DNA of 64,000 bases from Escherichia coli (GTDB lineage Bacteria; Pseudomonadota; Gammaproteobacteria; Enterobacterales; Enterobacteriaceae): the NCBI RefSeq assembly GCF_024700885.2, contig NZ_CP117016.1, one strand, 5' to 3'. Position 1 is the stretch's first letter. Each line of letters starts with the position of its first letter. Shown piece by piece: positions 26,269-43,370 of the stretch. Both the position numbers and the translations under genes were made by a program. The notes under the pieces are model-generated. The model was not told the origin of the DNA, did not search any database, and saw only the letters and a list, made by a program, of their open reading frames with translations.

Positions 26269-27450
26269 ATGAAAGGAATGCAGAAGATCAAAAGGGGTAA
26301 GAGCTTCTCAGGTGTGGTTCTCTATGTGTTAAAGCCAGGCTCACACCATAGAACCGTTCCAGAAGTAATTGGTGGCAACATGACAGGTGATTGCTCACAA
26401 GAGTTAATCGACGAATTTAACCTTACGAAAGAGCTTCGCTCAGATGTGGCAAAACCTGTTTGGCACAATTCACTTCGATTACCCCAGGGAGAATCTCTTA
26501 CCAACGAACAATGGAAACGAATTGCTGACGATTACATGAAGCGAATGGGGTTCGGTGATACACACCTCCGTTGCTATGTTCTTCATGATGATCAGGCTGG
26601 TCAGCACATACACATTATTGCAAGTCGCATAGATCTCAATGGCGGGAAGCTCTACTTGGGTAGGAACGAAAACCTCATCAGCACCCGCATAATCAGTGAA
26701 CTCGAATTCGCTCATGGTCTGACAGTGACCAAGACAGCCTCTTCAATTGCACCAAAGCAACCGAAGCGGAAGAGAATCTCTCGCAACGAACAGATGCTAT
26801 CAGAACGAACTGGTGTTCCCTGCCCCAAGAAGTCCCTTCAACAGATCATAGATAAAAGTTTGGCAGATACACCTGACCTTTTAACTTTTATCAAGAGGCT
26901 GGAAGAAGCAGAAGTAGGCTGGACGGCGAATGTCGCAAGCACAGGTAAAATGAACGGGTTCTCTTTCGAATACACAGGAATAGCTTTCAAAGCTTCCCAG
27001 TTAGCCAAGAGCTATTCATGGGCAAATCTTCAAAAGCAGCTTAACTACAACCCGGATCACTTAGAAGCTCTGCGAAAGGATATACAGACCAAGGAAGTTC
27101 CTGCTCCTGTTCCTGTTCCTGTTCCTGTTCCTGTTCCTGTTCCTGTTCCTGTTCCTGCAGAACCGATAGCAAGAACGGCCGCCCAGATCGAAAGCATAAG
27201 TGAAAAAATTGCCGAACTGGAACTACGACTCAAAGAAGACAGAAGAAACGAAATCGTAGAAAAGATTCTTCAAAAGAATGCAGCCAAACAGCAAAAGCAT
27301 CTCAGGCTCACCGGCTGGATTCCCTTTTTACAACGGCTCATAGAGCTTCTCAGAAAATATGGAAGGAGCATCCTCCACAAGGTTCCTACAAACTTCTTAG
27401 AAGTCTATTCAACCCATCATCTGAAACCTACAAGAAAAATTCGTTTATAG
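26269..27450 (+). CDS. Mobilisation relaxase (MobA/VirD2-like nuclease domain) with internal (PV)n linker
   Basis: 393-aa ORF with N-terminal Tyr region (GVVLYVLKPG) and HDDQAGQHIHII three-histidine motif typical of relaxases. Confidence 0.75.
   Translation: MKGMQKIKRGKSFSGVVLYVLKPGSHHRTVPEVIGGNMTGDCSQELIDEFNLTKELRSDVAKPVWHNSLRLPQGESLTNEQWKRIADDYMKRMGFGDTHLRCYVLHDDQAGQHIHIIASRIDLNGGKLYLGRNENLISTRIISELEFAHGLTVTKTASSIAPKQPKRKRISRNEQMLSERTGVPCPKKSLQQIIDKSLADTPDLLTFIKRLEEAEVGWTANVASTGKMNGFSFEYTGIAFKASQLAKSYSWANLQKQLNYNPDHLEALRKDIQTKEVPAPVPVPVPVPVPVPVPVPAEPIARTAAQIESISEKIAELELRLKEDRRNEIVEKILQKNAAKQQKHLRLTGWIPFLQRLIELLRKYGRSILHKVPTNFLEVYSTHHLKPTRKIRL
27100..27153 (+). repeat. In-frame hexanucleotide tandem repeat (CCTGTT)n, nine units with seven perfect, encoding a Pro-Val/Pro-Ala linker
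   Basis: CCTGCT-(CCTGTT)x7-CCTGCA read directly inside the relaxase ORF. Confidence 0.9.
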
Positions 27451-27702
27451 ACAGCTAGTTATAAACACCTTTCGTAACATAACTTAATTACCTAGTGATA
27501 AATTTGTGTTTAGTCAAGAAAATATTGATCGTTATTACAGATCGATATCAATATTATGATAGCCTAAACCTATCGTAACTTAGACATCGATCGGTACAAG
27601 TGATTTTACTAAAGATAATTATTCATCGAGAATCCCTGAAAAGAGCCTGATGATTTTTAAGCAATAGCAGTATCAGGAACCGATTGTAAAAATGGAGTTA
27701 AT

Positions 27703-27981
27703 ATGAATAACGAAACCATTAAGTGTCCGTTCTGCTTCAAAGAGAGCCAGTTTGGTGTCCGTGTTTGTACCGGCTGTCATTCAACCATCAAATATGGCGA
27801 AGTTTCACCTTGGTTATCTTTACTAATAGGATTTATTTTATTAGCCATTGCTTACATCATACTTTATATAAGTCAAAGTTTTTTAGTAGCTCTCGTTATT
27901 CTTTTAACATTAATGATTTCTACAAGATTGTATATTCGTAAAAAATTTGCACACAGAGCAGTTTTCACTCACCAACATTAA
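27703..27981 (+). CDS. Hypothetical zinc-ribbon membrane protein
   Basis: 92-aa ORF with CPFC...CTGC at the N-terminus followed by two hydrophobic helices. Confidence 0.45.
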   Translation: MNNETIKCPFCFKESQFGVRVCTGCHSTIKYGEVSPWLSLLIGFILLAIAYIILYISQSFLVALVILLTLMISTRLYIRKKFAHRAVFTHQH

Positions 27982-27999
27982 GAACAAAAGGGATTTAAC

Positions 28000-28314
28000 A
28001 TGAAAGCATATGCTATGCTAACAATCATTCTTTCTACTTTTCTATTAACTGCATGTAATAGTGAACCAAGTCAAGATGATATCTACAATGCATTCAAAAG
28101 TGTTGTAGATAAAACCAATGCCAGCATGAAAGCTTTTGATTCAAGAGTGTCAGAAAAAGACCTTTTAAAAATCGATTATGTAAAAAAAGTAAGCTGTTCG
28201 GAAGAAGCAAACAATGTTTACAACTGCATTGTCGATGCTTCTATTAGCAACAATAAACAGACGAAACCAATTAAATTAGTTAAAGCTGATGGTGTCTGGA
28301 AAGAAGTTCAGTAG
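28000..28314 (+). CDS. Hypothetical lipoprotein
   Basis: 104-aa ORF with signal peptide and lipobox (LLTAC) at the N-terminus. Confidence 0.5.
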   Translation: MKAYAMLTIILSTFLLTACNSEPSQDDIYNAFKSVVDKTNASMKAFDSRVSEKDLLKIDYVKKVSCSEEANNVYNCIVDASISNNKQTKPIKLVKADGVWKEVQ

Positions 28315-28366
28315 TAGCCTATATCAAGAAGTCTCTTTTAGCCCCTGCACAGGGGCTTTTTATTGC

Positions 28367-28801
28367 CTATAACCTGACGGCTCTTACGCGAACTTCATGG
28401 GTTAACTCTTTCTCGATTACTTTCATTTCATATTGTGCTCTGACAGTAGCATAGATTTCTTCTGCCATTTCTTGATTGCTATCGATATAGTTAACGAGAG
28501 AGTTTAGCTCCCTGATAACAGCTTCCTTATTGTTTAATCGTTGTAGTAGATTGCTTGTTAGGCTTTTGTATACAGAGCTAAACATTGCCATGACATTGTC
28601 TATGTTACGATTTGATTTGGAATAAATTTTTTTAGGATAGAAATATTTTAAATGGTATCCCACAAAAATTAAGTAAAGCTGATATGAAAAACTTTTATCA
28701 TGTGGCTGATATCGTTTTGATATGTATTTATCTACAATGATAACAAGCTGTTCTTCCAGTGTCATCACTGAATTATAATTGGTTTTGTTCATAAGTTGCA
28801 T
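28367..28801 (-). CDS. Hypothetical protein
   Basis: 144-aa ORF in AT-rich island DNA; no recognisable motif. Confidence 0.4.
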   Translation of the reverse strand: MQLMNKTNYNSVMTLEEQLVIIVDKYISKRYQPHDKSFSYQLYLIFVGYHLKYFYPKKIYSKSNRNIDNVMAMFSSVYKSLTSNLLQRLNNKEAVIRELNSLVNYIDSNQEMAEEIYATVRAQYEMKVIEKELTHEVRVRAVRL

Positions 28802-28894
28802 CCTTGCAAAATTTGATTTTGTCTTCCTGACAATACATATATAATTACCACATATTTAAAAAACATCAATAGACAAAACCTATTGATGTCAAAA

Positions 28895-29308
28895 TTATTT
28901 TTTGTTTTTGGGAAAAATTTGATCTTCTCTAATACATTTACCATATGCAACCATTTGAAGATCTCTAACCATAAGTAGAAGCCTGTTATTTTCACTAACT
29001 AACCTCGAATTTTCTGTTTCTAATTTACTGATTTTATTCGAAGCATAGGCAAGACTTTGAGGACTTTTAATATGCTTAACAGTTTCACCTTTAGTTCTCT
29101 TTTTCTGCTGATATGCATAAGCTATTACTGTATGTCTTGAAAGAGCCTGTCTCGTTGGTTTTTTACCGAAATGATCCTCTACGGAATCACAAAGACTGAC
29201 CCAAGTTAAATCGCCTTCCCAGCCATTTATTTTATCGAGAACGAATTCAATATCTTCCTTGTTAAACTTTTTACTCATTATGTTCTCCTCTAAGATAATA
29301 ACTAACAA
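28895..29308 (-). CDS. Small coiled-coil protein co-operonic with the recombinase trio (real start possibly MSKKFNKED at 29278)
   Basis: 137-aa ORF overlapping the stop of the upstream recombinase; C-terminal heptad-like KISKLETENSRLVSENNRLLLMVRDLQ. Confidence 0.5.
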   Translation of the reverse strand: MLVIILEENIMSKKFNKEDIEFVLDKINGWEGDLTWVSLCDSVEDHFGKKPTRQALSRHTVIAYAYQQKKRTKGETVKHIKSPQSLAYASNKISKLETENSRLVSENNRLLLMVRDLQMVAYGKCIREDQIFPKNKK

Positions 29309-30917
29309 TATGATTTATAATTTTACTAACTTCTTGGATTTCCTTTTCAACATAATTCGCTTTCTGTGAATTATATTGGCTTCTGTATAAATTATTCTTT
29401 TCTTCAAGCGTTTGTAAATGGTCTTTAATTTTGCAAATAATATCATCCTTACTCCCTCCACCTAAATCAGAAATCATTTCATCAGCAAATAATACTCTTC
29501 GTTCGTTTTGTCGCAACTCCTCCCAAGTTCGGTTATCATACACATTATTTTGTTCAACATTTTTCCTCCCTGACCAAAAAGCTATTTCTATATCAGAGAG
29601 CATAGCTCTTTGAGCAAGAGTGTTTAAAAGATGTCTTGGCTGATGACTACTAAAAATCTCTTTCATACCATTGGGTTGTAATGTTTTATGTCGTTGAAAA
29701 AAATTTAAGGTAGTTTCTTTTTCTGACCTTTTTTTAAAATCAGCAATAAACATCTTTTTATTTGCGGGTAAGACACAGAATAAATCAATTCCTTTCTTTA
29801 AATGTAATTGATCTTTATTTAGGATTAACAATCTATTACTAAGGTTTATAGATTTTGAAAATTCATCCCAAGATTTTGTTTTATCGCTATAATTAAAAAC
29901 TTCATTCCAAAATTCTTTTGCACTAAGAATCCCACTCTCTACCCTCATTAATATATTTTTAGTTTTAACATTGAAGCAGTCCATACAGTTTAGATTTAAA
30001 AGCTTATACAACTTTGTATGAAAATATCGTCCATTCTCATCAGTCTCTAAACTCTTATAAAACTCCAATTCTCCTTTTTCTCGTAGGGTAGCTATGCACC
30101 TTGCCGTTTGTGATAATACCCTTAATCTTTTAATGGCTAATTTTGCTATTGAATGCATATTCCTTGGAATCCACTTTATACTTTCACCATAGCCTTTTGC
30201 ACTATGATAACGAATGCCATAGGAGCCTTTCCCCTCTATGTCGTTCCCTTCAACTTCACAATCCACCTCAAGACTCAGGACTTCTGATATTCGTGTTGGA
30301 GCACAAAGAAGCAGTGCGATGATAGATGTTGTAAATATATCTCTTTGGCTTTTATCATTAGAACTAAAAACCCTACCAACAAGATCTATGACTTCCTCTT
30401 CTGGTAACTTATTTTTAATTTCTTTTTGCCCTATAAGATCTCTTACAGCTTTATTTCTAATTATTCTAAGCCTGGAGTTAAACTTACTTAATTTTGGATT
30501 TATTATGTTATTTATAGCTAACACTTCTAAAATATTCTTTAATGCCTTTTCAATAGCCCCCGCACGACTATTAGAATATTTCTTTTCTACTTGGAATAAA
30601 ATGTTGTTGATAACCTCAGAATTAATATTAACAATATGTGGTTCTACATTCAAAGTGAAGAATGAACTTTCCATAATTTTTATGACCGCCAAATAAAGTA
30701 ATGATTTACTGAGATTAGGGAAACACTCTCTATATATAATAACCTTTGATAATTGTTGAAAATGCGCTCCCATGTCTTTATCTTTTTTTATATGATTGTT
30801 ATTTTTAAATGAAACCCCTCTACCCCATGACAAATCATCCCAATTTATAATATTTTCTTTTTTTGCCTGTATCCTTACTTCATTAGCTAAAACATCATAA
30901 TTATTATAATGACTCAT
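29271..30917 (-). CDS. Tyrosine recombinase family protein (third of three tandem paralogues)
   Basis: 548-aa ORF; candidate catalytic residues in order: R in CAPTRISEVLSL, HQPRHLL (HxxR), W in FWSGRK, Y in NNVYDNR. Confidence 0.6.
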   Translation of the reverse strand: MSHYNNYDVLANEVRIQAKKENIINWDDLSWGRGVSFKNNNHIKKDKDMGAHFQQLSKVIIYRECFPNLSKSLLYLAVIKIMESSFFTLNVEPHIVNINSEVINNILFQVEKKYSNSRAGAIEKALKNILEVLAINNIINPKLSKFNSRLRIIRNKAVRDLIGQKEIKNKLPEEEVIDLVGRVFSSNDKSQRDIFTTSIIALLLCAPTRISEVLSLEVDCEVEGNDIEGKGSYGIRYHSAKGYGESIKWIPRNMHSIAKLAIKRLRVLSQTARCIATLREKGELEFYKSLETDENGRYFHTKLYKLLNLNCMDCFNVKTKNILMRVESGILSAKEFWNEVFNYSDKTKSWDEFSKSINLSNRLLILNKDQLHLKKGIDLFCVLPANKKMFIADFKKRSEKETTLNFFQRHKTLQPNGMKEIFSSHQPRHLLNTLAQRAMLSDIEIAFWSGRKNVEQNNVYDNRTWEELRQNERRVLFADEMISDLGGGSKDDIICKIKDHLQTLEEKNNLYRSQYNSQKANYVEKEIQEVSKIINHIVSYYLRGEHNE

Positions 30918-32274
30918 TATTCATGCCCTCCTTGTTGAGCAATTCGATTATTTTATTTATTTTACATTCTAACATTGTGAATAAGTCCGTTAGGATTTCA
31001 AAGTCTGCTTGCTTCGTATAATCTGCTATTAATACTCCAGTAAGCTTTTTTATGATTATCAAATCGTCAACCAATCTAAGGGTAATGTCGTCACTGTTTT
31101 TTAAAAATGAGGAAATATAAGGGCTTACTAACTCATTTATTGCCTGATCTATTCTGAATGAAAACTCTTCATTGTTTTTTGCATACGACAATACTGATTT
31201 CAAATTGCTATGATCTAAAGCTTTTGCTATCGTACCTAATCCATAACCTTTAAGTGCAAGCCTTGTGGCTAATGTAACCCTAAGTTGCCGAGAGTTAATC
31301 TTTTTATTTTTATCTTTACTTACCCTTTGGCAAATGGCCTGAACCCTACCGGTTATCCTCTTAGAACTCATATGCAAATTGAAGAAGTTATTTTCATATA
31401 ATTTATCAAGTTTGTAAGTCGAGTTAAAAAAACAAGGATCAATAAAGAGGGGTAAATTGTTTAATTCATCTTCACTTAATATATCGCCTACCTCACCCTG
31501 CACAAAAACCTTAACTACTGATTTAAGCTCTGATAGTGAATTGAACAAATTATCCCCTATACGCAATTCGGAAAAATCAGTTCTGAAACTATCTCCTTGT
31601 TTTAATCTGGGTATGTTTAAAAAATTACCATTTTCTTTGATATAAAGATCCTTCCTTTTTAATTGAGCGATCTGCATTGGTCTTCGCCCCGAATATATCA
31701 TCAGCATGACTAAAAGGTAGTCATTCATAGTCATATTTCCATCATTGTATTCCTTTGTCATGCCCCCAATTAGGTTCTTCAGTTCGTATTCAGATAATGG
31801 TCTTAAAGACTCTTTTCGCTCAATATATGCAGTTGTCTTGTTGGGTTTAGTTACTTTCCATTTTAAAATCAAATCCAGCATTTCTTGATCTATGAATTCA
31901 TTATTTAACTCATAATGTTTTATTATAAAATACTTTAAACTTTCAACATGTGTATAGCTTATTTTATAATATGCATTGTAAAATCTATTTAGTAATCCAT
32001 AGTCAAATTTGTCCAACTTCCCTTGATTAAAAACAACGAGTTTTTTTATAGAAAAGAAAAACTTTCTCGCATAAGCTGAACTAAAATTCACAGCAGTATA
32101 GGCAAGGGTCTCTTTTATAGATGCTAATAAGATAGCATTAATGTTTCTTTCAAAATATGAGAAATTTAATTTAACATCTTTGCTGAGAAACCAAACACTA
32201 TCATGTAAACTAAAATTATTTCTGCTGTCTTTTGCCTTTAATACCAAGTAATTTTCTAACATTAATGCTTTCAT
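30904..32274 (-). CDS. Tyrosine recombinase-like protein with degenerate catalytic motifs (second of three)
   Basis: 456-aa ORF; SGRRPMQIAQL (box I Arg), SRQLRVTLATR, LDHSNLKSVLSYAKN; overlaps both neighbours. Confidence 0.5.
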   Translation of the reverse strand: MKALMLENYLVLKAKDSRNNFSLHDSVWFLSKDVKLNFSYFERNINAILLASIKETLAYTAVNFSSAYARKFFFSIKKLVVFNQGKLDKFDYGLLNRFYNAYYKISYTHVESLKYFIIKHYELNNEFIDQEMLDLILKWKVTKPNKTTAYIERKESLRPLSEYELKNLIGGMTKEYNDGNMTMNDYLLVMLMIYSGRRPMQIAQLKRKDLYIKENGNFLNIPRLKQGDSFRTDFSELRIGDNLFNSLSELKSVVKVFVQGEVGDILSEDELNNLPLFIDPCFFNSTYKLDKLYENNFFNLHMSSKRITGRVQAICQRVSKDKNKKINSRQLRVTLATRLALKGYGLGTIAKALDHSNLKSVLSYAKNNEEFSFRIDQAINELVSPYISSFLKNSDDITLRLVDDLIIIKKLTGVLIADYTKQADFEILTDLFTMLECKINKIIELLNKEGMNNESL

Positions 32275-33508
32275 CTATTTCTCCTTCAATTTTATTTATG
32301 ATTTCTTGATTCACTAAATCTGCCTCTTCAAAAGCTTTTAAAGTTTCTTCACTAATATAACGATTGTTATAAATCAAAGCCGTTTTGGAGTTCATTTTCC
32401 ACCCCATTCTTACGCATCTGATTCTATCTAATTGGGTCAATCTATATTGATCAGTGACTCCTATGTATTTTAAACTGTAAATATAGTTCCATGTGTGCCG
32501 TAGACAATGCCCTGTGAAATTTTGAAAAGATACTCCATTGAATTCAATTCTACTTATTTGCTTAATTACTTTATGATATGCACTTATTGACAGAGGAAAT
32601 CCTTCCGTAGGACCAGATTTTTGAGTAATAAATAAGTAATTATGATTTAAGCTTTTCGAATAGAAAGACCTATCATTGTCTATATATGAAGAGATTTGCA
32701 TAGACAATTTTTTGCTAATATTTAATTCTCGTTCAAATGTTTTAACAAGTGGTTGAAAAACTCTTGGGTCTGCTGGATCATTTATTCTTTTACAAACTTT
32801 CAGATATCTTTTTTCCTTGTTAAAATCAGTAATTTTCAAGTTCAATAGCTCACCCCCTCGCATTCCAGTTTCCTGAAGAATGAGGATTATGAGTTGATTT
32901 CTTTTACGGCAACTGATATCAACAAATGGATTGTATTGGCTTTCAGGTTCTATACATTGCAATAGAATGTCTAAGCTTTCTTTTTCTAATGATTTAAAAT
33001 CATTATTCAAATAGAATTGAGAGTTTAATTTTGGTTTATGTTTACGAAAAAGCAAACTAACACTTTTTGATATAATGTTTGTCTCATATATTGTAGTGCT
33101 AAAATATGATTCATAAATCCAAGAAATGTAGGAACTAATTACTGTCAATCTATAATGAAGATTTTCTTGATTGATCTTTTTATACTCTTTTATATCTATA
33201 ACTTTTTGTTTTTTATTTTTAACTCTAAGTTGTTCTGACAATGAATAGATTTCAGTAAAGCTAAGGAAGGTCTTAGATCTAATTCTTTCGATAAGATTTA
33301 TATTTGATTCTATTAGATAATTTTCAAAAGCAATCAAAGTGTAAGCATTTCTCAATACTGTATTAAATGACTTATTCTTTTGCTTATATAGCAAACTAAG
33401 ATATATATTTTGATAATACAATGGCAAACCGTTTTTTGAATCCAAAATCATACAAAATCTGCTTCCATCACTCGCCATTAACTTCTTTACTGAATATCTC
33501 CTATTCAT
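32216..33508 (-). CDS. Tyrosine recombinase family protein (first of three; start set at MNRRYSVKKL after a GGGGTGA RBS, ORF extends to 33547)
   Basis: GMRGGELLNL (box I Arg), HCLRHTW (HxxR), GWKMNS, ALIYNNRY (Tyr) in canonical order. Confidence 0.65.
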   Translation of the reverse strand: MNRRYSVKKLMASDGSRFCMILDSKNGLPLYYQNIYLSLLYKQKNKSFNTVLRNAYTLIAFENYLIESNINLIERIRSKTFLSFTEIYSLSEQLRVKNKKQKVIDIKEYKKINQENLHYRLTVISSYISWIYESYFSTTIYETNIISKSVSLLFRKHKPKLNSQFYLNNDFKSLEKESLDILLQCIEPESQYNPFVDISCRKRNQLIILILQETGMRGGELLNLKITDFNKEKRYLKVCKRINDPADPRVFQPLVKTFERELNISKKLSMQISSYIDNDRSFYSKSLNHNYLFITQKSGPTEGFPLSISAYHKVIKQISRIEFNGVSFQNFTGHCLRHTWNYIYSLKYIGVTDQYRLTQLDRIRCVRMGWKMNSKTALIYNNRYISEETLKAFEEADLVNQEIINKIEGEIDESINVRKLLGIKGKRQQK

Positions 33509-33626
33509 TATCACCCCATAATTTATTTTTTTATTTATAGGTAACATAATTTTTTAGCAAGTTACAAATTTATTTGCTATTATTTTCAATGACCTTATTA
33601 CTCGCGACTCTAATAAAGAATCGGCC

Positions 33627-33652
33627 ATATATTCACCTTAAGGTGAATATAT
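33627..33652. promoter_or_regulatory. Perfect palindrome ATATATTCACC-TTAA-GGTGAATATAT between the recombinase operon and the tRNA genes
   Basis: 11-bp arms with a 4-bp spacer read directly; function (operator or recombination site) not determined. Confidence 0.5.
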
Positions 33653-33680
33653 ATTCCCTCTTGACGCTCCAAAAAACAAT

Positions 33681-33757
33681 GCGGTAGTAGTTCAGTTGGT
33701 CAGAATATTCCCCTGTCACGGGAATGGTCGTGGGTTCGAGTCCCATCTATCGCGCCA
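33681..33757 (+). tRNA. tRNA-Asp (anticodon GUC), foreign island-borne copy
   Basis: Manual cloverleaf: acceptor GCGGTAG/CTATCGC, D stem GTTC/GAAT, anticodon stem TTCCC/GGGAA with loop CUGUCAC, T loop TTCGAGT, 3' GCCA; differs from my recollection of the host tRNA-Asp. Confidence 0.8.
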
Positions 33758-33761
33758 GAAA

Positions 33762-33836
33762 GGGCAATTAACTCATTGGTAGAGTGTATCTCTTACAAAG
33801 ATATGGCGGTTGGTTCGATTCCAACATTGCCCACCA
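33762..33836 (+). tRNA. tRNA-Val (anticodon UAC), foreign island-borne copy
   Basis: Manual cloverleaf: acceptor GGGCAAT/ATTGCCC, D stem ACTC/GAGT, anticodon stem TATCT/AGATA with loop CUUACAA, T stem GTTGG/CCAAC, 3' ACCA. Confidence 0.8.
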
Positions 33837-33847
33837 AAACATAAAAT

Positions 33848-33917
33848 GCGTCAGTATTTCAATGGTAGAATAAAACATTGCCAATGTTTAGGTGAGGGTT
33901 CGATCCCCCTATATTTA
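33848..33917 (+). pseudogene. Degenerate tRNA-like sequence with a Gly (GCC) anticodon arm
   Basis: Intact anticodon arm AAACA-TTGCCAA-TGTTT and a T-loop-like GGGTTCGATCCCC, but the acceptor strands GCGTCAG and ATATTTA cannot pair. Confidence 0.4.
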
Positions 33918-34104
33918 CTTTAGTTAGTAACTCATTGATATAAAATAAATAATAGAAAAGTGTAATTTGTTTTGTAAAGCACAAATAAGAAATTAGAAAA
34001 TATTTAAATGTACAGTGTACGAAAAATTAACCAACTATGTTAATGGCAACTATATGATGATAAAATTACTCATCTAACGATCTATATTATATGAGTAATG
34101 TTTC

Positions 34105-34680
34105 ATGGTACGAAAAATCTCTACATTTTTAAAGATAATAGGAGTTATAGGTTCTTTATGCGGGATTATTGCGACAGTATTCACAATCTATGCGTACTAC
34201 AACCCGACCTCCCCTTCTACTCAGAGATATGACAGTATTGTAGGAAGCTGGCTATCTGATTACTCTTACACCGTAAAAGGGAATACCGTTAGGGTTAATG
34301 GAAAAACGACCTTCTTCTCTAATGGAAAATACAACTTTCATGGCAGTATCTCTATTGACTCTAATGCTCCAGGTGACCATATATTAATAGATTATCTTTC
34401 TGATGGTGCTGGTGATTGGGAACTATATGATAATGAGTTAATTACATCATTAAATAGCCTAAAAACAAAACCTATGAAGCTGGCTTTAAATAACGAAGAT
34501 CTTGATCCACTGAAAATAGAGGTGATAAACAATAAAAAGTTACCAACTATTGAGGAGAATATGGCTGATGGGAAAAACCAATCCTATAAAATAATAAAAT
34601 CTTCAAAAAGCCAGTTAACATTGGAGGTTATTAACGAAATCGGAAGCAATTTCAACTTTACTATGCAAAAAACAAAATAG
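34105..34680 (+). CDS. Hypothetical membrane-anchored or secreted protein
   Basis: 191-aa ORF with an N-terminal hydrophobic segment followed by a Ser/Thr/Asn-rich domain. Confidence 0.45.
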   Translation: MVRKISTFLKIIGVIGSLCGIIATVFTIYAYYNPTSPSTQRYDSIVGSWLSDYSYTVKGNTVRVNGKTTFFSNGKYNFHGSISIDSNAPGDHILIDYLSDGAGDWELYDNELITSLNSLKTKPMKLALNNEDLDPLKIEVINNKKLPTIEENMADGKNQSYKIIKSSKSQLTLEVINEIGSNFNFTMQKTK

Positions 34681-34711
34681 AAATGATGGCGATCTGAAAT
34701 CGCCATCATTT
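34681..34711. terminator. Perfect 13-bp stem hairpin, bidirectional terminator between the convergent 191-aa ORF and the helicase gene
   Basis: AAATGATGGCGAT-CTGAA-ATCGCCATCATTT with A/T runs on both sides, filling the gap between two stop codons. Confidence 0.75.
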
Positions 34712-34712
34712 T

Positions 34713-36560
34713 TCAACCTTGATAATCTTCAGCCTCGATACCACAATAAGTTATCATGTTTGTTATTAACGGTATATCATTACAATTCTGCTTGAAAGAC
34801 CTGCCATAACTATTGTTTCTTATTTTACAACGAGTCATTAATACTTCTTCAATGGCTCTTGAAAATGCCACAAAGACTGTTTTTTGATTTTCTATTTGCT
34901 CTTCTTCTTTACCAAAATAGGCACCAGGTTCAAGCCCCACAACGATGACCTTCCTGAACTCTAACCCTTTACTTTTATGGATGGTCATAAGAGGTATTGT
35001 TTTATTGCCAAGTAATAAATCAATGGCTTCTGATGTGTTTTCTTTTACATCTAACTTATCGAGGTGGCGAGAAAGTAATTCTATGCTATATTCTAAAACA
35101 TTCCCACTCATATACTGCGGAAAGTAAGACTTTATTTTATCGACACCAAATATACTTAATAATGAATATAAATAATCGACAATTTCTCCTTTAATTACCC
35201 GATGAGATTTAATAAACTGGCTAAGTTCTTTTTCTAACCGTGTAACATCACCTCTTTTACTTACTCCTCTTATATTACATAGAAGCTCCATTGTAGTGGC
35301 CCAGCTTTCTATGGATTTTCTATTACAGACAAACATTAGCATTTGTAAAAGTAACTGTACTACAGCTTCATTTAAAAGATCCTGATACTCGTTCTCAAGG
35401 CGACATTGTATTTTCAAATATTGCAATGCTGAAATGATATCGTCTGTATATTGTTTAGCCGGGTTTCTTAGCAGTATACATATATCTCTTTCATTTACTC
35501 CTTCAGCAATCCATTGCTGGATACATAATGCTATATATGCCCCTTCAATACTACTTTCGTCAAATTGTAGTAACTTAGCTGAACCTTCATTTTCAATCAA
35601 CATCATATCAGGCTTTATATCAGCATGATTCATGAAAGCTTCCATCATGCGTTGATAATTTATGAGGTTTTTTAATGACCTTCTATTGCTAACTAATTCA
35701 TTAGATTGTTCGATTCCAAAATCTTTTTTAAACACATCAAAAGCATTGTGCATTGCACCTGCCCAACCCATTATTCTTTGTTTTGTATCACCGACTGCTG
35801 TTATTTTTATTTTTTTACCCAAGAAAATGCTCTTAAAAATCTCATATTGCCTATATGTTGTGTCCTGAAACTCATCGATAAAAGCATAGTCATATGTTGA
35901 ATTTATAGCATTAGATAAATATTGATTCCTACTAATAATATAATTAGCAAGAAAATTAATCATCTTGAATGAAATCCTTGATTTTGGTTTTAATAAGTGT
36001 AACCACACAAACCGTCTTATCCTGCCATCAACAGAATGTTCTAATGCTTTATTATAAGGAGTTACTATATAATTCTCTTCAAAATTATAAGGTTGTAATT
36101 TATTTAATTCTTCAGATGTTAAACCTTCAAAGCCTACGGCCTCTCTTTTAATTTCTTCAACTAAATCATTATTATTTGGAAAGATTATTTCATAGTCATT
36201 TGATGGACGATAAGATTCCGGAATAGTGCTTTTAAAGCGATCAACAATACTTTTACAGAATGCATCAAATGTTGTTGATTCAAATTTGTGTCTATATTTT
36301 GTATCAAGCCGTGAGTTTACTCTATCTTGAAGATTTTTGGCCGCATCTTTTTTAAAGGATAATGCAATTATTTTTTTATTGCTGCATTTTCCTGTCTCAA
36401 TCAAGAAACAAGCTTTCTGAGCCAATAATTCTGTTTTACCTGCACCGGGACCAGCAAGAACGAGATTATGCCCTGTACTATTTCGAATTACCCTCATAGC
36501 CTCGTCTTCTACTTCTTGGATATCCTTTAAAACCCAATCGGCATCTTTAATAGTCGGCAT
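34713..36560 (-). CDS. gajB: UvrD/PcrA-like superfamily 1 helicase, Gabija GajB-like
   Basis: 615-aa ORF with Walker A (LAGPGAGKTELL), DEFQDTT motif and C-terminal HKSKGLEF motif; start codon shares one nucleotide with the upstream ATPase stop. Confidence 0.65.
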   Translation of the reverse strand: MPTIKDADWVLKDIQEVEDEAMRVIRNSTGHNLVLAGPGAGKTELLAQKACFLIETGKCSNKKIIALSFKKDAAKNLQDRVNSRLDTKYRHKFESTTFDAFCKSIVDRFKSTIPESYRPSNDYEIIFPNNNDLVEEIKREAVGFEGLTSEELNKLQPYNFEENYIVTPYNKALEHSVDGRIRRFVWLHLLKPKSRISFKMINFLANYIISRNQYLSNAINSTYDYAFIDEFQDTTYRQYEIFKSIFLGKKIKITAVGDTKQRIMGWAGAMHNAFDVFKKDFGIEQSNELVSNRRSLKNLINYQRMMEAFMNHADIKPDMMLIENEGSAKLLQFDESSIEGAYIALCIQQWIAEGVNERDICILLRNPAKQYTDDIISALQYLKIQCRLENEYQDLLNEAVVQLLLQMLMFVCNRKSIESWATTMELLCNIRGVSKRGDVTRLEKELSQFIKSHRVIKGEIVDYLYSLLSIFGVDKIKSYFPQYMSGNVLEYSIELLSRHLDKLDVKENTSEAIDLLLGNKTIPLMTIHKSKGLEFRKVIVVGLEPGAYFGKEEEQIENQKTVFVAFSRAIEEVLMTRCKIRNNSYGRSFKQNCNDIPLITNMITYCGIEAEDYQG

Positions 36561-38548
36561 TAAAGTAATCCTCTTACTGTTTCGATAATTTCATTAAGAA
36601 CTTCAGGACTATCATCTCTTAACTTATCGTCTTCCATTTTTGATAGAACATAATTGTGCGATAATGGTTTACCTCTTCCTAAAAATAGGTAACGATACCA
36701 AAAATATTTTTCATAATCATCGAACTCACTAATATCAATATCTTTCTCTTCTTTTTTCAAAACTGCAGCAATTGCCGATTTAACTTTATTATCATATTCA
36801 TGATCGTCATCTTTTGGCAATCTTGGCCCACCATTTTTGGGAACAAATGTCTTATAATCCTCAAAGAATTTATTAAGCATTAGCCAATCTAAATCGTAGG
36901 GGTAAGAAAAATAAACATTATAATCTTTTAGACAATTAATCCATGCCGATTCATTATCTTGATCCTCATCCCATGTATGCATTTTTTCAAGCTCTTCATC
37001 ACTTAAAGTTCCTGAAGTAATACTTAACAATTCATTTTTATCTGCACCTATAGATATTAATTGTTTGACTGCATATTTAATTCTTCCCCAACCACCACCT
37101 CCTCCTCTCTTGAAATCATAGTCGAGAAGAGTCACATGTGGAATTGAAAGCTCATTGAGTAACTTCCAAAAATGATTAACATATCGCCCTCCTAATGGAG
37201 CAAATGTTATCAATGAAGTGTCAAGCTCTATACCATTTACTTGAGCTATTTTAGGTATTACTATTTCTTCGCTATCACCTTCACCAAGTATTACAACTTT
37301 TGCAAAATAAATTTCTGGATATGCCTTCACTGCTTCTTTTACATAAGTGAAAGTATCAACATTGTCTCCATCGTCTTCATCTTCGCTTGGTAATAATATT
37401 GGTTTGACAACAGTATTTTTATTATCATGTAGACGAAAATACCTTATATTTTCTGGTTCTACTCTATTGAGTAATGAAGGTGCGTGTGTTGTTAAAACAA
37501 CCTGTGCTCGATCATTCTCAGATATATCTTCACATAGTTTAACTATTCTTCCTAAATATTGGGGTGAAAGATGATTTTCTGGTTCTTCGATTAATATTAT
37601 CGTTAAATTTGGAGGATCTAATGCTTCTACTGATATTGATAATTCATTTTCTCCTGAATTAATGATCTCATCTTCAATATCAAATGCAGATTTGACTAAC
37701 GAAAGATAAAACAATGACTTCATACCATCACTCAATCTTTCAGTTGGTAATGGCTGAGTCACCGGAGTAGGCATAAATACAGTATCTATATGCTTTAATA
37801 CATCTTCTATTCCATTCATTACTGGCTGAATTTTAAGCTGTTCAAAATACCCTCCGCTAAAAAGAGTTTTCCAATTTCTGCCCAATGAAGATGTTATTGT
37901 CTGAACCCCAATTTCTTCTTGGAACTGGTTTCCGATTGATTCTGCAACCTCATCAACCGTTGAACTCATCTGTTCAGACCATTCAACTGCATTTATCAAA
38001 CGGTGCATGATGGTTCCGGCTGTTTGCTTCAGTTGTTGAGCAGGATCGCGATAAGCAGGGACATAATGAACATGGATTTTTGATCTTTCATATGCTGTAA
38101 TATTTTTTTCATATTCTCCTATTTCCCATACTAAATCACTATCTATATCCCCTTCTGCAAGATTAGTTTTTGTCCATTTAGCTTTTAATTTTGCTATACA
38201 GTATGGGATCTGGTCTGCTTCATTTGAGACCAAATGCTTAAAGAAATCAGCGACTGAATCGTCCTCACCATCTTGCAGATCTGCAAATTCAAATTTTACA
38301 CGAACTGATAATTCTCTTTCATCTTGAGTATCGATTTCATCTCCAGGAGGAACATAAAAATCATCAACTTGAACAATTCTATCGGAGCTTTTGACACCAA
38401 ACATCCTTGTCAATGCGAGGAGAACAGCCGTCTTACCTGTTCCATTCCCTCCAATTAAGCTGGTGAATGAATTTATATTTATAGTTTGCCCTACATTATC
38501 AAAGCTCTTAAAACCTTTGATCTCCATTTGTGTAATTTTCATTATCAC
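36560..38548 (-). CDS. gajA: OLD-family ATPase-TOPRIM nuclease, Gabija GajA-like
   Basis: 662-aa ORF with ABC-type Walker A (LIGGNGTGKTAVLL), Walker B and H-loop region (IILIEEPENHLSP) and a C-terminal TOPRIM-like VVILGEGDSEE. Confidence 0.65.
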   Translation of the reverse strand: MIMKITQMEIKGFKSFDNVGQTININSFTSLIGGNGTGKTAVLLALTRMFGVKSSDRIVQVDDFYVPPGDEIDTQDERELSVRVKFEFADLQDGEDDSVADFFKHLVSNEADQIPYCIAKLKAKWTKTNLAEGDIDSDLVWEIGEYEKNITAYERSKIHVHYVPAYRDPAQQLKQTAGTIMHRLINAVEWSEQMSSTVDEVAESIGNQFQEEIGVQTITSSLGRNWKTLFSGGYFEQLKIQPVMNGIEDVLKHIDTVFMPTPVTQPLPTERLSDGMKSLFYLSLVKSAFDIEDEIINSGENELSISVEALDPPNLTIILIEEPENHLSPQYLGRIVKLCEDISENDRAQVVLTTHAPSLLNRVEPENIRYFRLHDNKNTVVKPILLPSEDEDDGDNVDTFTYVKEAVKAYPEIYFAKVVILGEGDSEEIVIPKIAQVNGIELDTSLITFAPLGGRYVNHFWKLLNELSIPHVTLLDYDFKRGGGGGWGRIKYAVKQLISIGADKNELLSITSGTLSDEELEKMHTWDEDQDNESAWINCLKDYNVYFSYPYDLDWLMLNKFFEDYKTFVPKNGGPRLPKDDDHEYDNKVKSAIAAVLKKEEKDIDISEFDDYEKYFWYRYLFLGRGKPLSHNYVLSKMEDDKLRDDSPEVLNEIIETVRGLL

Positions 38549-39195
38549 CTCAATTGCTGTTTTAAAAAATTATAATCACTAATTATTTCTGCGTTTGTAA
38601 TGATTTCTTGTGAGCACAGCTTAAAACATTCTAAAAATATATTTTTATTATCGTTATGTTCCCAATGTTTTTTCAAAGCTTCTTCAATTGAAATCCAAAT
38701 AACTTGAAAATCGTTATTAGATATTTGGCTTGTTAAAACTGTTTCTTCCACACAAAGTATATGCCCTAAGATGACATCATCGTATATGTCAGTATCTGAA
38801 TCTCTAACTCCTAACCTTTTTATTTTCCTTTTTTGGATGATTTTATTTTTAACAATAAAAGGATGTTCTTCTATAAAATCGGTCAATGATGTAAAAGCCA
38901 AGCCACGAACCTGAGCACCATGCATTGAACTATTTACTTTATGGATATCTCTCCAAACTCGCAGATCACCTAATACATAGAGAACCCGCTGATTTCTCGC
39001 TTTCGTATCTTCTGCTTGGTATTGGATATAAGGTGGCCCTCCCCCATTTTGTCTATATCGGGCAAGGGTTTTGATGCTTATGCCAAGAAAGACAGAAGCA
39101 AGCTCACTATTTACAGTGGCAGAATCAGGCATTTGACCAAATAGTTTCCATACCTCTGAATACTCCCGCAAAACTTCCACCACACTCATCTTCAC
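38545..39195 (-). CDS. Uncharacterised protein with an N-terminal HTH-like motif, translationally coupled between the integrase and the ATPase (possible true start at ATG 39189)
   Basis: 216-aa ORF; ELASVFLGISIKTLARYRQNGGGPP resembles excisionase/AlpA-type HTH; its start overlaps the integrase stop and its stop overlaps the ATPase start (ATGA). Confidence 0.5.
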   Translation of the reverse strand: MKMSVVEVLREYSEVWKLFGQMPDSATVNSELASVFLGISIKTLARYRQNGGGPPYIQYQAEDTKARNQRVLYVLGDLRVWRDIHKVNSSMHGAQVRGLAFTSLTDFIEEHPFIVKNKIIQKRKIKRLGVRDSDTDIYDDVILGHILCVEETVLTSQISNNDFQVIWISIEEALKKHWEHNDNKNIFLECFKLCSQEIITNAEIISDYNFLKQQLR

Positions 39196-40655
39196 TCCCT
39201 CGTTTCAGGTAATGGAGGATACTTAGCCGAAGCAAGTAACACATTGTATAATTTAGGAGCAGTCATAAGCATATGCAACTCAATCCTTTGTAATGCTTCA
39301 AAAATCCGTTCTTGATCAGGTTCTGCATACCTTTCTGTTGGATCTGTTGTATTTCTGTGATTGAGCAGTCTCTTAACGACGGCATATGAAACAAGTTCTT
39401 CAGCAACCCTACCAAATGTCCTTCGTAGATCATGCATACCAAGCTTCAGGATTCCCGCCTCTTGGCAGATATATTCCCTTAGACTTTTACTATCGGAATA
39501 GTGACCAACTTTACTTCGAGAAGAACGGGCCGGGAAAACCCACTTCTGTTTGTCCTTCTGGGTTACCGTATCGTTTACTATGTCTCTTCTATCTTCCAAA
39601 ATTCTTTTGACAGCATCACAAATCGGAAGCTCGTGATCGTTTCGATTCTTAGTGTCGTAAAAACGGATAGTTCTGTTACTCAGGTCAACATAGCTTGTCG
39701 TTTTAGCTTCTTCCTTTGTAAGAGACTCTCGCCAACACAGAGAAGCTGTTTCTTCCTTACGAGCACCTAAGAGAACGGTAAGTAGCAGATAATCGCACCC
39801 AAGCCGGTTGAAGCTTCTCTTGTTGAACAATGCAGTCAAGAACCGACCAAGTGTATCCTTTGGTGATAAGGGGTTTCTGACACCTTTTGCCCGATAACTA
39901 TCCTCAAGCTCAGAACGTGTCCTAAACTTTTTCTGTACCTTTAAGATACTGAAAGGGTTGTAAGATAGAGAAGGTTGTCGTTGCTGGGTCTGAGCATTCC
40001 CAGCTTCAATCTCTATTGCGTGTTTTACAGCAACATTCGCCCACCTAAAGGTCTGTTCCGCTGCTGTTCTGGCTCTTGAAGCAATCTCATCAAACTTCCT
40101 AAGAATTTCATTACCAGTAAGATCTTTAACTCGCAAACCAGCCCACTCAGAAAGCCTGTTTTCTGCTTTATCTAATACAGCCAAGGTGTTGGGTTTAGCT
40201 GGTTTCGCTCTACCCAGCAGATGCTGGCGGTATTGTGCAAACACTTCACTGATAGTGAGTTCAGAAGCATCGGACTCCCGTTTTATTTTGTTAGGGTTCC
40301 TTTTGGTCAACTTCATGGTTTGAACTAAATTGCGAGCAACCTCGCGGGCTTGATCGATGTTAGCGAAATCAGAGACATTGCCAATTGTAGACCTGATAAC
40401 CTCAGATGGGGATTTTCCCCCTGTCTTAGGGCGATTGCCAGGAGAAGAGACTCGTCGCTGAACGATATAGGTCTTTTTCGTTGCACTGATTTTGACACCA
40501 AAACCAACGGGTGAATCCCGGTGATTATCAGTGATAAGATACGGTTTTCGCTCTGGATTGGGTAAGTAGACTACTCTGCCTTGCGGATCAAGGCTCGGTT
40601 TCACGTCGATAGATAACTTATTGATTATAATCGACTGATTGAGTGTCATTTTCAT
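39192..40655 (-). CDS. Tyrosine integrase, P4-like family with N-terminal arm-binding domain (ORF extends to 40763; start set at MKMTLNQ)
   Basis: Box I LLGARKEETASL, HDLRRTFG (HxLR) and C-terminal NHRNTTDPTERY; lies at the island border next to the target gene. Confidence 0.8.
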   Translation of the reverse strand: MKMTLNQSIIINKLSIDVKPSLDPQGRVVYLPNPERKPYLITDNHRDSPVGFGVKISATKKTYIVQRRVSSPGNRPKTGGKSPSEVIRSTIGNVSDFANIDQAREVARNLVQTMKLTKRNPNKIKRESDASELTISEVFAQYRQHLLGRAKPAKPNTLAVLDKAENRLSEWAGLRVKDLTGNEILRKFDEIASRARTAAEQTFRWANVAVKHAIEIEAGNAQTQQRQPSLSYNPFSILKVQKKFRTRSELEDSYRAKGVRNPLSPKDTLGRFLTALFNKRSFNRLGCDYLLLTVLLGARKEETASLCWRESLTKEEAKTTSYVDLSNRTIRFYDTKNRNDHELPICDAVKRILEDRRDIVNDTVTQKDKQKWVFPARSSRSKVGHYSDSKSLREYICQEAGILKLGMHDLRRTFGRVAEELVSYAVVKRLLNHRNTTDPTERYAEPDQERIFEALQRIELHMLMTAPKLYNVLLASAKYPPLPETRE

Positions 40656-40660
40656 CGATG

Positions 40661-40716
40661 TATACCAGTGGTTCAAGTGTGTATACCAGATAGTAGCTAG
40701 AATACTTCTGGTATAC
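40661..40716. promoter_or_regulatory. Three copies of TATACCAG, including a 10-bp inverted repeat GTATACCAGA...TCTGGTATAC, between the integrase start and mutS
   Basis: Read directly; candidate integrase operator or arm sites, overlapping a possible -10 (TAGAAT) for the rewired mutS. Confidence 0.5.
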
Positions 40717-40787
40717 AAATTTATGGGTTTATGTGAGTTTAAAGGGGTATCACTTGGGGCCACATAAGTACTCAGAAGACTTTAAAA

Positions 40788-43370
40788 ATGAGTAAAATCA
40801 ATATGAAAGAGTCTGCAAGCAAGGATCTATCAGACCACACTCCTATGATGCAGCAATATCTCAAGCTGAAAGCCCAGCATCCCGAGATCCTGCTGTTTTA
40901 CCGGATGGGTGATTTTTATGAACTGTTTTATGACGACGCAAAACGCGCGTCGCAACTGCTGGATATTTCACTGACCAAACGCGGTGCTTCGGCGGGAGAG
41001 CCGATCCCGATGGCGGGGATCCCCTACCATGCGGTGGAAAACTACCTCGCCAAACTGGTGAATCAGGGCGAGTCCGTTGCCATCTGCGAACAAATTGGCG
41101 ATCCGGCGACCAGCAAAGGTCCGGTTGAGCGCAAAGTTGTGCGTATCGTTACGCCAGGCACCATCAGCGATGAAGCCCTGTTGCAGGAGCGTCAGGACAA
41201 CCTGCTGGCGGCTATCTGGCAGGACAGCAAAGGTTTCGGCTACGCGACGCTGGATATCAGTTCCGGGCGTTTTCGCCTGAGCGAACCGGCTGACCGCGAA
41301 ACGATGGCGGCAGAGCTGCAACGCACTAATCCGGCAGAGCTGTTGTATGCAGAAAATTTCGCCGAGATGTCGCTGATTGAAGGTCGTCGCGGACTGCGCC
41401 GTCGCCCGCTATGGGAGTTTGAAATCGACACCGCGCGCCAGCAGTTGAATCTGCAATTTGGCACCCGCGATCTGGTCGGTTTTGGCGTCGAGAACGCGCC
41501 GCGCGGACTTTGTGCTGCCGGTTGTCTGTTGCAGTATGCGAAAGATACCCAACGTACGACTCTGCCGCATATTCGTTCCATCACCATGGAACGTGAGCAG
41601 GACAGCATCATTATGGATGCCGCGACGCGTCGTAATCTGGAAATCACCCAGAACCTGGCGGGTGGTGCGGAAAATACGCTGGCTTCTGTGCTCGACTGCA
41701 CCGTCACGCCGATGGGCAGCCGTATGCTGAAACGCTGGCTGCATATGCCAGTGCGCGATACCCGCGTCTTGCTTGAGCGCCAGCAAACTATTGGCGCATT
41801 GCAGGATTTCACCGCCGAGCTGCAGCCGGTACTGCGTCAGGTCGGCGACCTGGAACGTATTCTGGCGCGTCTGGCTTTACGAACTGCTCGCCCACGCGAT
41901 CTGGCCCGTATGCGTCACGCTTTCCAGCAACTGCCGGAGCTGCGTGCGCTATTAGAAAATGTCGATAGCGCTCCGGTACAGGCGCTGCGTGAAAAAATGG
42001 GCGAGTTTGCCGAGCTGCGCGATCTGCTGGAGCGAGCAATCATCGACACACCGCCAGTGCTGGTACGCGACGGTGGTGTTATCGCACCGGGCTATAACGA
42101 AGAGCTGGATGAGTGGCGCGCGCTGGCTGACGGCGCGACCGATTATCTGGAGCGTCTGGAAGTCCGCGAGCGTGAACGTACTGGCCTGGACACCCTGAAA
42201 GTCGGCTTTAACGCGGTTCATGGTTATTACATTCAGATCAGCCGTGGACAAAGCCATCTGGCACCCATCAATTACATGCGTCGCCAGACGCTGAAAAACG
42301 CCGAGCGCTACATTATTCCAGAGCTAAAAGAGTACGAAGACAAAGTTCTCACTTCAAAAGGCAAAGCACTGGCACTGGAAAAACAGCTTTATGAAGAGTT
42401 GTTCGACCTGCTGTTGCCGCATCTGGAAGCGTTGCAACAGAGCGCGAGCGCGCTGGCGGAACTCGACGTGCTGGTGAACCTGGCAGAACGGGCCTATACG
42501 CTGAACTACACCTGCCCGACCTTTATTGATAAACCGGGTATTCGCATCACCGAAGGCCGCCATCCGGTGGTTGAACAGGTGCTGAATGAGCCGTTTATCG
42601 CCAACCCGCTGAACCTGTCGCCGCAGCGTCGCATGTTGATCATTACCGGTCCGAATATGGGCGGTAAAAGTACCTATATGCGCCAGACCGCACTGATTGC
42701 GCTGATGGCCTACATCGGCAGCTATGTACCGGCACAAAAAGTCGAGATTGGACCTATCGATCGCATCTTTACCCGCGTAGGGGCAGCGGATGATCTGGCA
42801 TCCGGGCGTTCAACCTTTATGGTGGAAATGACCGAAACCGCCAATATTTTACATAACGCCACCGAGTACAGTCTGGTGCTGATGGATGAGATTGGGCGCG
42901 GGACGTCCACTTACGATGGTCTGTCGCTGGCGTGGGCGTGCGCGGAAAATCTGGCGAATAAGATTAAAGCGTTGACACTGTTTGCCACCCACTATTTCGA
43001 GCTGACCCAGTTACCGGAGAAAATGGAAGGCGTCGCCAACGTGCATCTCGATGCGCTGGAGCACGGCGACACCATTGCCTTTATGCACAGCGTGCAGGAT
43101 GGCGCGGCGAGCAAAAGCTACGGCCTGGCGGTTGCAGCTCTGGCAGGCGTGCCAAAAGAGGTTATTAAGCGCGCACGGCAAAAACTGCGTGAGCTGGAAA
43201 GCATTTCGCCGAACGCCGCCGCTACGCAAGTGGATGGTACGCAAATGTCTTTGCTGTCAGTGCCAGAAGAAACGTCGCCTGCGGTCGAGGCACTGGAAAA
43301 CCTCGACCCGGATTCACTGACTCCGCGTCAGGCGCTGGAGTGGATTTATCGCTTGAAGAGTCTGGTGTAA
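40788..43370 (+). CDS. mutS: DNA mismatch repair protein MutS with an island-encoded replacement N-terminus
   Basis: 860-aa ORF; matches the MutS sequence as I recall it from HTPMMQQYL onward (Walker [10 protein letters not shown] present), but the first 16 residues [16 protein letters not shown] are encoded by island DNA. Confidence 0.93.
40836..40858. repeat. Right copy of the imperfect direct repeat flanking the island (attR candidate), inside the mutS coding sequence
   Basis: CACACTCCTATGATGCAGCAATA; 19 of 23 positions match 22999-23021. Confidence 0.65.

Follow-up and report, generated by a model that had tools for sequence, protein, structure and literature searches.

The mismatch-repair gene mutS sets the rates of mutation and recombination in the cell, and in Escherichia coli its level is lowered under stress via the mutS leader. 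In the stretch of E. coli chromosome analyzed here (contig NZ_CP117016.1; 64 kb, hereafter the window) an island of about 17.8 kb is integrated within the 5′ coding sequence of mutS, and the complete mutS gene at the right end of the island begins with codons that the island has supplied. We are fairly confident that positions 40656-40858 form the right attachment end (attR) of an island which integrates and is probably mobilizable, and that the arrangement as a whole is that of a mutS-targeting island which restores the gene into which it integrates.

Integration within the coding sequence of mutS

The island (23022..40858; about 31% GC, carrying the defence system Gabija) differs in base composition from its surroundings, the GC content being 0.45-0.59 in the flanks, dropping from 0.45-0.54 to about 0.30 at position 23000 and reaching 0.59 at 41000. 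At both ends there is an imperfect direct repeat of 24 nucleotides with an exact core of 11 nucleotides: the copy in attL, CCATACGCCCATGATGCAGCAGTA, is found at 22998..23021 and the copy in attR, CCACACTCCTATGATGCAGCAATA, at 40835..40858, with A40856 as the final base that is diagnostic of the island. When aligned with K-12, the left junction still has the whole ygbA-mutS intergenic region together with the first 17 codons of mutS; at the right junction the remainder of mutS runs on unbroken after the repeat. The crossover position is thus at codons 16/17 of mutS, in or adjoining ATGATGCAGCAGTA. In K-12 and in most E. coli the mutS site is uninterrupted. The direct repeat, the break in GC content and the colinearity with K-12 on both sides confirm the proposal, made in a preliminary description of the region from its letters alone, that the island has displaced the mutS 5′ end. 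The same description put the mutS start 24 bp from the island edge; the actual distance, from ATG 40803, is 56 bp, and it is the repeat that measures 24 bp.

The island arrangement at mutS is no artefact, since the sequence of the right junction is 100% identical to that of E. coli MLI114 and the same junction of integrase and mutS recurs in no fewer than 133 of the 5426 complete E. coli genomes (about 2.5%). The integrase in question, a tyrosine integrase of 487 amino acids annotated by PGAP (39192..40655, minus strand), adjoins the right end and is transcribed divergently from mutS. It matches Pfam Phage_integrase with residues 321-449 (E=2.3e-10) and, weakly, Arm-DNA-bind_3 with residues 44-127.

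We propose that the integrase recombines at ATGATGCAGCAGTA within the mutS coding sequence. As this crossover lies inside the coding sequence, the attachment site of the island includes a surrogate for the mutS 5′ end, consisting of an initiation region, the start codon ATG 40803, a tail of 11 residues and synonymous codons for HTPMMQQ. Integration rebuilds a complete mutS of 855 amino acids and leaves the native promoter, leader and 17 codons behind at the left end, as an orphan. Judged by the homology with Salmonella, the mutS transcript would most likely start about 190-200 nucleotides upstream of the ATG, in the first codons of int and antisense to them, so that the mutS leader would cross the arm-type sites of the integrase and a conserved block of 75 bp. 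In the integrated state the E. coli-specific controls of the leader, the (AAN)3 site for Hfq and the site for the small RNA ArcZ, would be lost. A copy in attP form was found neither in plasmid nor in phage collections; the lone "plasmid" match in this search was a mislabelled fragment of a Salmonella chromosome, which pointed to the Salmonella scar described below.

The surrogate 5′ end and selection on its codons

The right copy of mutS (40803..43370, plus strand) is a complete open reading frame (ORF) of 855 codons that encodes MutS domains I-V, with matches to all five Pfam MutS domains. Its codons 1-18 (40803-40856) are island-encoded, and so are the ribosome-binding region and the start codon, as had been read from the sequence before. 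The start codon and the selection on the surrogate end were evaluated on a set of 33 distinct right ends of the island, drawn from E. coli and another 22 loci of Enterobacterales. ATG 40803, the start called also by PGAP, is invariant in 33/33. An alternative start at 40788 was rejected: this triplet is ATG in 19/33 right ends, ACG in 12/33 and CCG in 2/33, so that 14 of the 33 variants lack it, and one sequence has an in-frame stop downstream. Just 5′ of the conserved start codon lies the near-invariant GAGTAAAATCAAT (40790..40802, plus strand), the proposed translation-initiation region.

What the island changes in the protein is limited. The native tail of nine residues, MSAIENFDA, is swapped for the island-encoded tail of 11 residues, and HTPMMQQ is re-encoded by island DNA with synonymous codon changes that leave the amino acids as they were. 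The N-terminus had been described as replaced by the island, which at the protein level holds for the tail only. A further difference, K19 (R19K), was considered as island-derived and dismissed because AAG is the majority native allele, the native 5′ end being followed by AAG in 3109 of 5380 E. coli records. Pfam MutS_I begins precisely at the T of TPMMQQY, and the swapped tail lies outside this domain as well as outside the part that can be aligned with the MutS structures from Neisseria and Thermus; the E. coli MutS constructs whose structures have been solved carry six additional N-terminal residues. Because the change is confined to a non-conserved tail, normal function is expected of the MutS protein made from the rebuilt gene.

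Among the 33 right ends the HTPMMQQY codons show 1222 synonymous and 0 non-synonymous pairwise differences, counted over related sequences and thus not over independent events. The variable sites are five in number, all of them third positions. The 11-codon tail occurs in 17 versions of constant length, none of them with an insertion or deletion. This pattern of differences indicates that the surrogate mutS 5′ end is under purifying selection. For annotation it follows that MutS proteins of 855 amino acids with the tail M[KNQ]E..DKD..H are to be regarded as recombinant products.

Distribution of the island family and its remnants

Nucleotide identity among the E. coli clades of the island spans 100% to about 66%, and one of these clades is that of the enterotoxigenic strain E24377A. 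A scan with one genome per bacterial species revealed 26 related integrase loci, all in Enterobacterales, and in 22 of the 26 the integrase is located divergently beside mutS. The hosts are Citrobacter, Salmonella diarizonae and arizonae, Klebsiella, Kosakonia, Pseudocitrobacter, Yersinia, Serratia, Erwinia, Pantoea, Tatumella, Brenneria, Samsonia and Rosenbergiella. In every locus compared, host-specific mutS sequence starts directly after ATGATGCAGCAGTA; the integrase family thus targets ATGATGCAGCAGTA, the codons for MMQQY at the start of MutS domain I. MMQQY are the first strongly conserved residues of MutS, and the family brings its own version of all sequence upstream of them. The sister island of E24377A contains the defence system DRT3 (drt3a/b) together with an ABC-three-component system, a protein with a NERD domain and a relaxase fragment that IS3 has cut. 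The island family would appear to transport defence cargo of varied kinds.

The strongest indication that the rebuilt gene is used comes from Salmonella. The collection has 63,455 indexed blocks with the exact Salmonella MutS allele used as query, and Salmonella Senftenberg NCTC10384 and eight other contexts of the identical MutS protein have the island-type mutS start. In the Salmonella loci the conserved upstream block and GCTACA repeats are kept beside mutS, and 158 bp upstream of mutS there is an integrase N-terminal stub of 130-134 amino acids, which probably is the "unknown" gene STM2908. The published SL1344 promoter string matches the stub region, showing that S. Typhimurium has this region too. 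Judged from these genomes the island-type mutS 5′ end appears to be fixed in Salmonella enterica, and the locus, which also holds SPI-1, pathogenicity island 1 of Salmonella, looks like the fixed scar of a mutS-targeting island. Between ygbA and mutS no orphan mutS 5′ fragment, the old attL, was found in Salmonella, and for this reason it cannot be shown that SPI-1 lies inside an old island. The small ORF upstream of Salmonella mutS can be annotated as an integrase remnant.

Decayed or split integrases beside an island-type mutS are also present in Klebsiella michiganensis, Citrobacter sedlakii, Brenneria, Samsonia, Erwinia psidii, Rosenbergiella and an Escherichia species. They are truncated or frameshifted stubs, or integrases split by an insertion, and their occurrence in several genera indicates that the surrogate 5′ end was left behind repeatedly. 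The idea that the stub is retained as a selected regulator of mutS was discarded since the stubs of other genera contain stops and frameshifts. Because whole species depend on the island-type 5′ end, crippled mismatch repair is unlikely, and the island-type 5′ end probably supports normal repair.

These results bear on the proposal of Mageeney et al. in 2020 for mutS-targeting clades of Beta- and Gammaproteobacteria (PMC7192596), by which the integrated island would lower or abolish MutS and raise the mutation rate, and its excision would restore the native gene, a regulated gene integrity like that of SpyCIM1 at mutL. SpyCIM1 is a precedent (PMC3430984, PMC4689407), the native mutS promoter and leader are physically cut off by the island, and no strong intergenic promoter is predicted. 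Against a mutator switch of this kind stands that an in-frame start and tail are supplied, which are open without insertions or deletions in 33 variants and show selection at the amino acid level, and that mutS is annotated as intact in all carrier genomes listed. Nor is a disabling insertion compatible with a 5′ end that is apparently fixed in Salmonella enterica and kept beside decayed integrases. We consider such a switch very improbable and prefer the restoration of mutS by the island.

Repeats and a conserved block in the attachment arms

The sequence TATACCAG occurs three times in 40661-40715, where 0.8 copies are expected over the whole window; the mutS control region would overlap the integrase upstream region with these repeats, in agreement with the preliminary description. 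The exact 9-mer TGGTATACA, which contains TATACCAG, has four copies in the 64 kb, and these are at the island ends only. The repeats at 40659-40667 (minus), 40680-40688 (minus) and 40709-40717 (plus) are proposed to be arm-type integrase sites of the P arm, and the TGGTATACA copy at 23092..23100 (plus), 71 bp inside the left end, an arm-type site of the P′ arm. In the clade of E24377A the motif is changed from GGTATACA to GCTACAA at positions equivalent to those of the window repeats, and this clade has its own motif, GAGCTACA, near the left end of the island in what is apparently the place equivalent to that of the copy at 23092. The integrases of the two clades are about 95% identical past residue 100, and over their first 100 residues they diverge far more. 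Between clades the repeat motif changes along with this N-terminal, arm-binding domain of the integrase. Because they are present in both attachment arms and co-vary with the arm-binding domain, the TATACCAG repeats are probably arm-type integrase sites, a reading that accounts for them better than that of a regulator operator. Binding of the integrase at the repeats could affect both the int and the mutS promoter.

Next to the repeats is a block (40714..40789, plus strand) that is conserved in all island variants and contains the direct repeat TTYAYNTGGG twice, about 21 bp apart, the two copies changing in concert between variants. A conserved RNA element in the leader was considered and rejected: for the block and leader RNAalifold gave an energy of -0.7 with no convincing covariation, and the sole Rfam match was a spurious miRNA. 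The block could consist of protein-binding sites of the attachment arm or be part of a long mutS leader.

In the attP of phage lambda, accessory sites are located between the arm-type sites and the core. It is conceivable that the upstream conservation likewise reflects recombination only, via sites for the integrase, a directionality factor or IHF, and is silent on mutS expression. The two repeats of the block are about two helical turns apart and change together, the block lies between the arm-type sites and the core, and no RNA fold is conserved, all of which would fit. The block is kept with few changes, however, in Salmonella and in other genera in which only a dead integrase stub is left, and no gene for a directionality factor was identified in the island, the small island ORFs giving no informative PHROG matches. 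We therefore regard an exclusive role in recombination as unlikely. The retention of the block beside dead integrases favours a role in mutS expression.

Transcription of the rebuilt mutS

All four genes upstream of mutS (34713 to 40655) read in the opposite direction, so that a mutS transcript has to begin in island DNA, within the control region of the integrase gene or the 5′ end of that gene, and the earlier statement that the mutS promoter is island-encoded is required by the orientation of the genes. A home-made weight-matrix scan of the intergenic region revealed no conserved candidate except TAAAAT next to the ATG. This near-invariant hexanucleotide was excluded as a promoter, since it ends 4 nucleotides before the ATG, too close for a translatable transcript, and fits better as a part of the initiation region. 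A candidate promoter for mutS, TTCACG-17-GATTAT (40600-40605 and 40623-40628, plus strand), is predicted within the first codons of int, antisense to them; it is overlapped by a perfect TATAAT at 40626-40631, and by the same home-made scan TT[CA]AC[AG]-17-GAT[AT]AT is found at the same position in most island variants.

For S. Typhimurium SL1344 two mutS transcription start sites have been listed from differential RNA sequencing (PMC3293720, PMC3963941). They are located at -201 and -434 from the conserved ATG, once the annotated start, which is 42 nucleotides late, has been corrected. The site at -201 lies 42 nucleotides inside the integrase stub, antisense to it, and corresponds to about 40613 in the window. 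The annotated mutS start of SL1344, 3072897, is the first Met of MMQQY, 42 nucleotides downstream of the conserved ATG, and is probably a mis-call.

The best candidate for the int promoter, TTGTAT-17-TACTAT (40690..40718, minus strand), is within the repeat cluster. If both promoter predictions are true, the int and mutS promoters face each other across the arm sites, which would provide a physical basis for the coupling of mutS to integrase regulation that had been suggested in the preliminary description.

The stranded leader and the control of mutS

In K-12, Chen and Gottesman showed that the mutS leader extends from the transcription start site at -74 and contains an (AAN)3 motif (ARN1) at -50..-42 and an ArcZ site near the ribosome-binding site, both of which mediate the repression of mutS by Hfq/ArcZ and thereby contribute to stress-induced mutagenesis; when these sites are mutated, MutS goes up and stress-induced mutagenesis goes down (PMC5580658). 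In the window the native leader (22898..22971, plus strand) is near-identical to that of K-12 and detached from the functional-looking gene; the colinearity with K-12 at the left junction bears out that 17.8 kb now separate the native promoter and leader from this gene. The stranded leader has retained the Hfq (AAN)3 site AATAAAAAC at 22922-22930 (-50 to -42 of the native leader) and the ArcZ seed complement CAGGGAA at 22951-22957 (-21). Within the 100 nucleotides upstream of 40803 there is neither an (ARN)3 run nor an ArcZ seed match of at least 6 bases. Energies calculated with RNAduplex for ArcZ and the leader did not separate native, island and shuffled sequences, and the leaders were compared by exact seed and motif searches in place of duplex energies. 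The Hfq/ArcZ sites are limited to few genera, and Salmonella mutS is not among the SdsR targets (PMC5580658), which fits with an island-type origin of its leader.

From these motif comparisons, the leader swap has probably rewired the regulation of mutS. A phenotype of this rewiring, with MutS made free of Hfq/ArcZ repression from a promoter that faces the int promoter, is a possibility that we put forward tentatively. It is backed by the presence of the (AAN)3 motif and the ArcZ seed complement in the stranded leader and their absence upstream of 40803, by the effects of mutating these sites in K-12 (PMC5580658) and by the candidate int and mutS promoters, which are convergent and overlap the arm-site cluster. 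On the other side, an (ARN)3-4 run is found at about -25 in a few of the island variants, that of E24377A among them, the long leader could hold other controls, and the promoter positions are predictions. Were there such a phenotype, carriers would have high MutS in stationary phase and less stress-induced mutagenesis, or a MutS level that is tied to integrase expression.

The wider claim is equally tentative: that carriage of the island rewires the control of mismatch repair in about 2.5% of complete E. coli genomes, by loss of the stationary-phase repression via Hfq/ArcZ and by a promoter antisense to int whose transcript passes through the integrase sites, and that in Salmonella enterica and several other Enterobacterales this has become a lasting replacement of the mutS control region and N-terminus. 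If true, the MutS level and stress-induced mutagenesis would differ with carriage and may respond to integrase expression. The islands swap the mutS leader in natural isolates and thus offer a natural experiment on the weight of Hfq/ArcZ control.

Several points weigh against the scheme as proposed. A scan of 40500-41000 for consensus sigma-70 promoters and terminators yielded nothing. The -10 element of the -201 start site of Salmonella, TAACAT, is not conserved in the window clade, and the Salmonella start site data are of low depth and disagree on which site is the primary one. From Salmonella it is seen that the island-type 5′ end can serve a species, not that E. coli carriers have the same MutS levels as island-free strains. 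For the repeats a role as arm sites is proposed from their sequence, and the island is likewise predicted from sequence to be mobile, by excision and transfer. The relaxase-like gene of the island (see below) falls far short of the cut-off for NCBIfam TraI_MobP (66.8 bits vs 250). The relatedness of the sequences behind the synonymous counts, mentioned above, belongs here too.

At the left end the native mutS codons 1-17 are followed by 17 island codons and a stop, forming an orphan ORF of 34 codons (22972..23076, plus strand). The native promoter had been thought to drive this orphan alone. This is not borne out: there is no terminator-like site on the plus strand after the orphan, and the next ORFs, at 23366-24943 (region 23077-25153, plus strand), are co-directional with the native promoter. 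Read-through from the host promoter into the left-end island genes is possible. In E24377A the first island gene is on the opposite strand, which rules out such read-through there. A promoter-like site is present at 23084-23111.

Relation to known systems

Hochhut and Waldor are said to have reported in 1999 that SXT/R391 elements integrate at the 5′ end of prfC. The likeness to the mutS island is that a tyrosine integrase acts in the 5′ coding end of a conserved housekeeping gene; SXT/R391 brings a promoter and N-terminal codons, by which the gene stays functional. The two differ in target, integrase lineage and type of element, SXT/R391 being self-transmissible, which the mutS island, small and carrying a relaxase-like gene plus cargo for defence, is not; also, the promoter that the island brings to mutS is a predicted one. 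Farrugia et al. reportedly described in 2015 integrases and genomic islands that target dusA. There, too, the 5′ end of a conserved gene is used in many genera and is restored by the element, the differences being the target, the integrase family and the lack of a link of dusA to DNA repair.

With TIGER/Islander, Mageeney et al. found 17 elements in mutS and distinguished four mutS-targeting integrase clades, from Beta- and Gammaproteobacteria, for which attB is located upstream of the Pfam matches of MutS; prfC is a known integration target in their Supplementary Table 8 (PMC7192596). The present family very probably includes one of their mutS clades. They proposed the elements as gene inactivators, whereas the evidence here points to restoration and thus corrects the published suggestion that mutS is inactivated by them.

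SpyCIM1 silences mutL and the genes downstream of it, resulting in a growth-phase-dependent mutator (PMC3430984, PMC4129442, PMC4689407). Like the mutS island, the SpyCI are located at the 5′ end of a mismatch-repair gene, and some of them carry a rescuing promoter. The mutS island differs from SpyCIM1 in that the mutS ORF is rebuilt and a conserved start and proposed initiation region are supplied, and the sequence points to retained function, not to a loss of expression in the integrated state.

In 2023 Hochhauser et al. described mutS-ygbA as hotspot #8 for defence islands in E. coli, occupied in 27/1322 genomes (PMC10121019). This is the same locus with defence systems aboard and a similar frequency of occupation (27/1322 vs at least 133/5426). 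The hotspot is defined by its flanking genes, and the main text of that paper is without mention of mutS, of integration within the ORF or of a 5′ swap (PMC10121019). Lerminiaux et al. had recognized fhlA-mutS as an island hotspot that includes SPI-1, with no attachment-type features apparent (PMC7232297). The integrase stub and the arm repeats beside Salmonella mutS would be the attachment-type features of that locus. The integrase family accounts for the fhlA-mutS interval as an island hotspot; if the rewiring set out above is true, this hotspot, which also holds SPI-1, is the footprint of a mutS-targeting integrase family.

Literature searches on integration into the mutS 5′ end yielded mentions at the level of catalogues only, those cited above. 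The strategy, the mutS-targeting integrases and hotspot #8 are already known; the present analysis adds to them the indications that mutS is restored, by a surrogate start and tail under selection, along with the proposed arm sites, the swap of the leader and the apparent scar in Salmonella.

Other genes of the island and its surroundings

The Gabija system (34713..38548, minus strand), identified with PADLOC, is complete, with the adjacent genes for the UvrD-like helicase GajB (34713-36560; E=2.6e-198) and the ATPase-nuclease GajA (36560-38548; E=1.9e-240) both giving full-length matches.

The relaxase-like gene (26269..27450, plus strand) is named a relaxase/mobilization nuclease domain protein by PGAP and has matches of the MobP/TraI type under curated cut-offs. 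Conjugation genes are not annotated in the island. Within this gene, at 27097-27162, there is a tandem repeat of about 11 units of the hexanucleotide GTTCCT, which encodes a Val-Pro repeat and could be a linker of variable length.

A second recombinase module is located at 29271-33547 (minus strand) and 33681-33836 (plus strand). It comprises two adjacent tyrosine recombinases of 443 and 456 amino acids, with weak matches to GmtY and integrase_1, and an ORF of 548 amino acids without matches; genes for tRNA-Asp(GTC) and tRNA-Val(TAC) adjoin. Possibly the module is an element nested in the island, of either the gamma-mobile-trio or the three-integrase type.

Outside the island, an ORF for a TOBE-domain protein (21835-22302, plus strand) lies between fhlA and ygbA; this ORF is not present in K-12. 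A modE-like gene has been found at the fhlA-ygbA spot in some Escherichia (PMC7232297).

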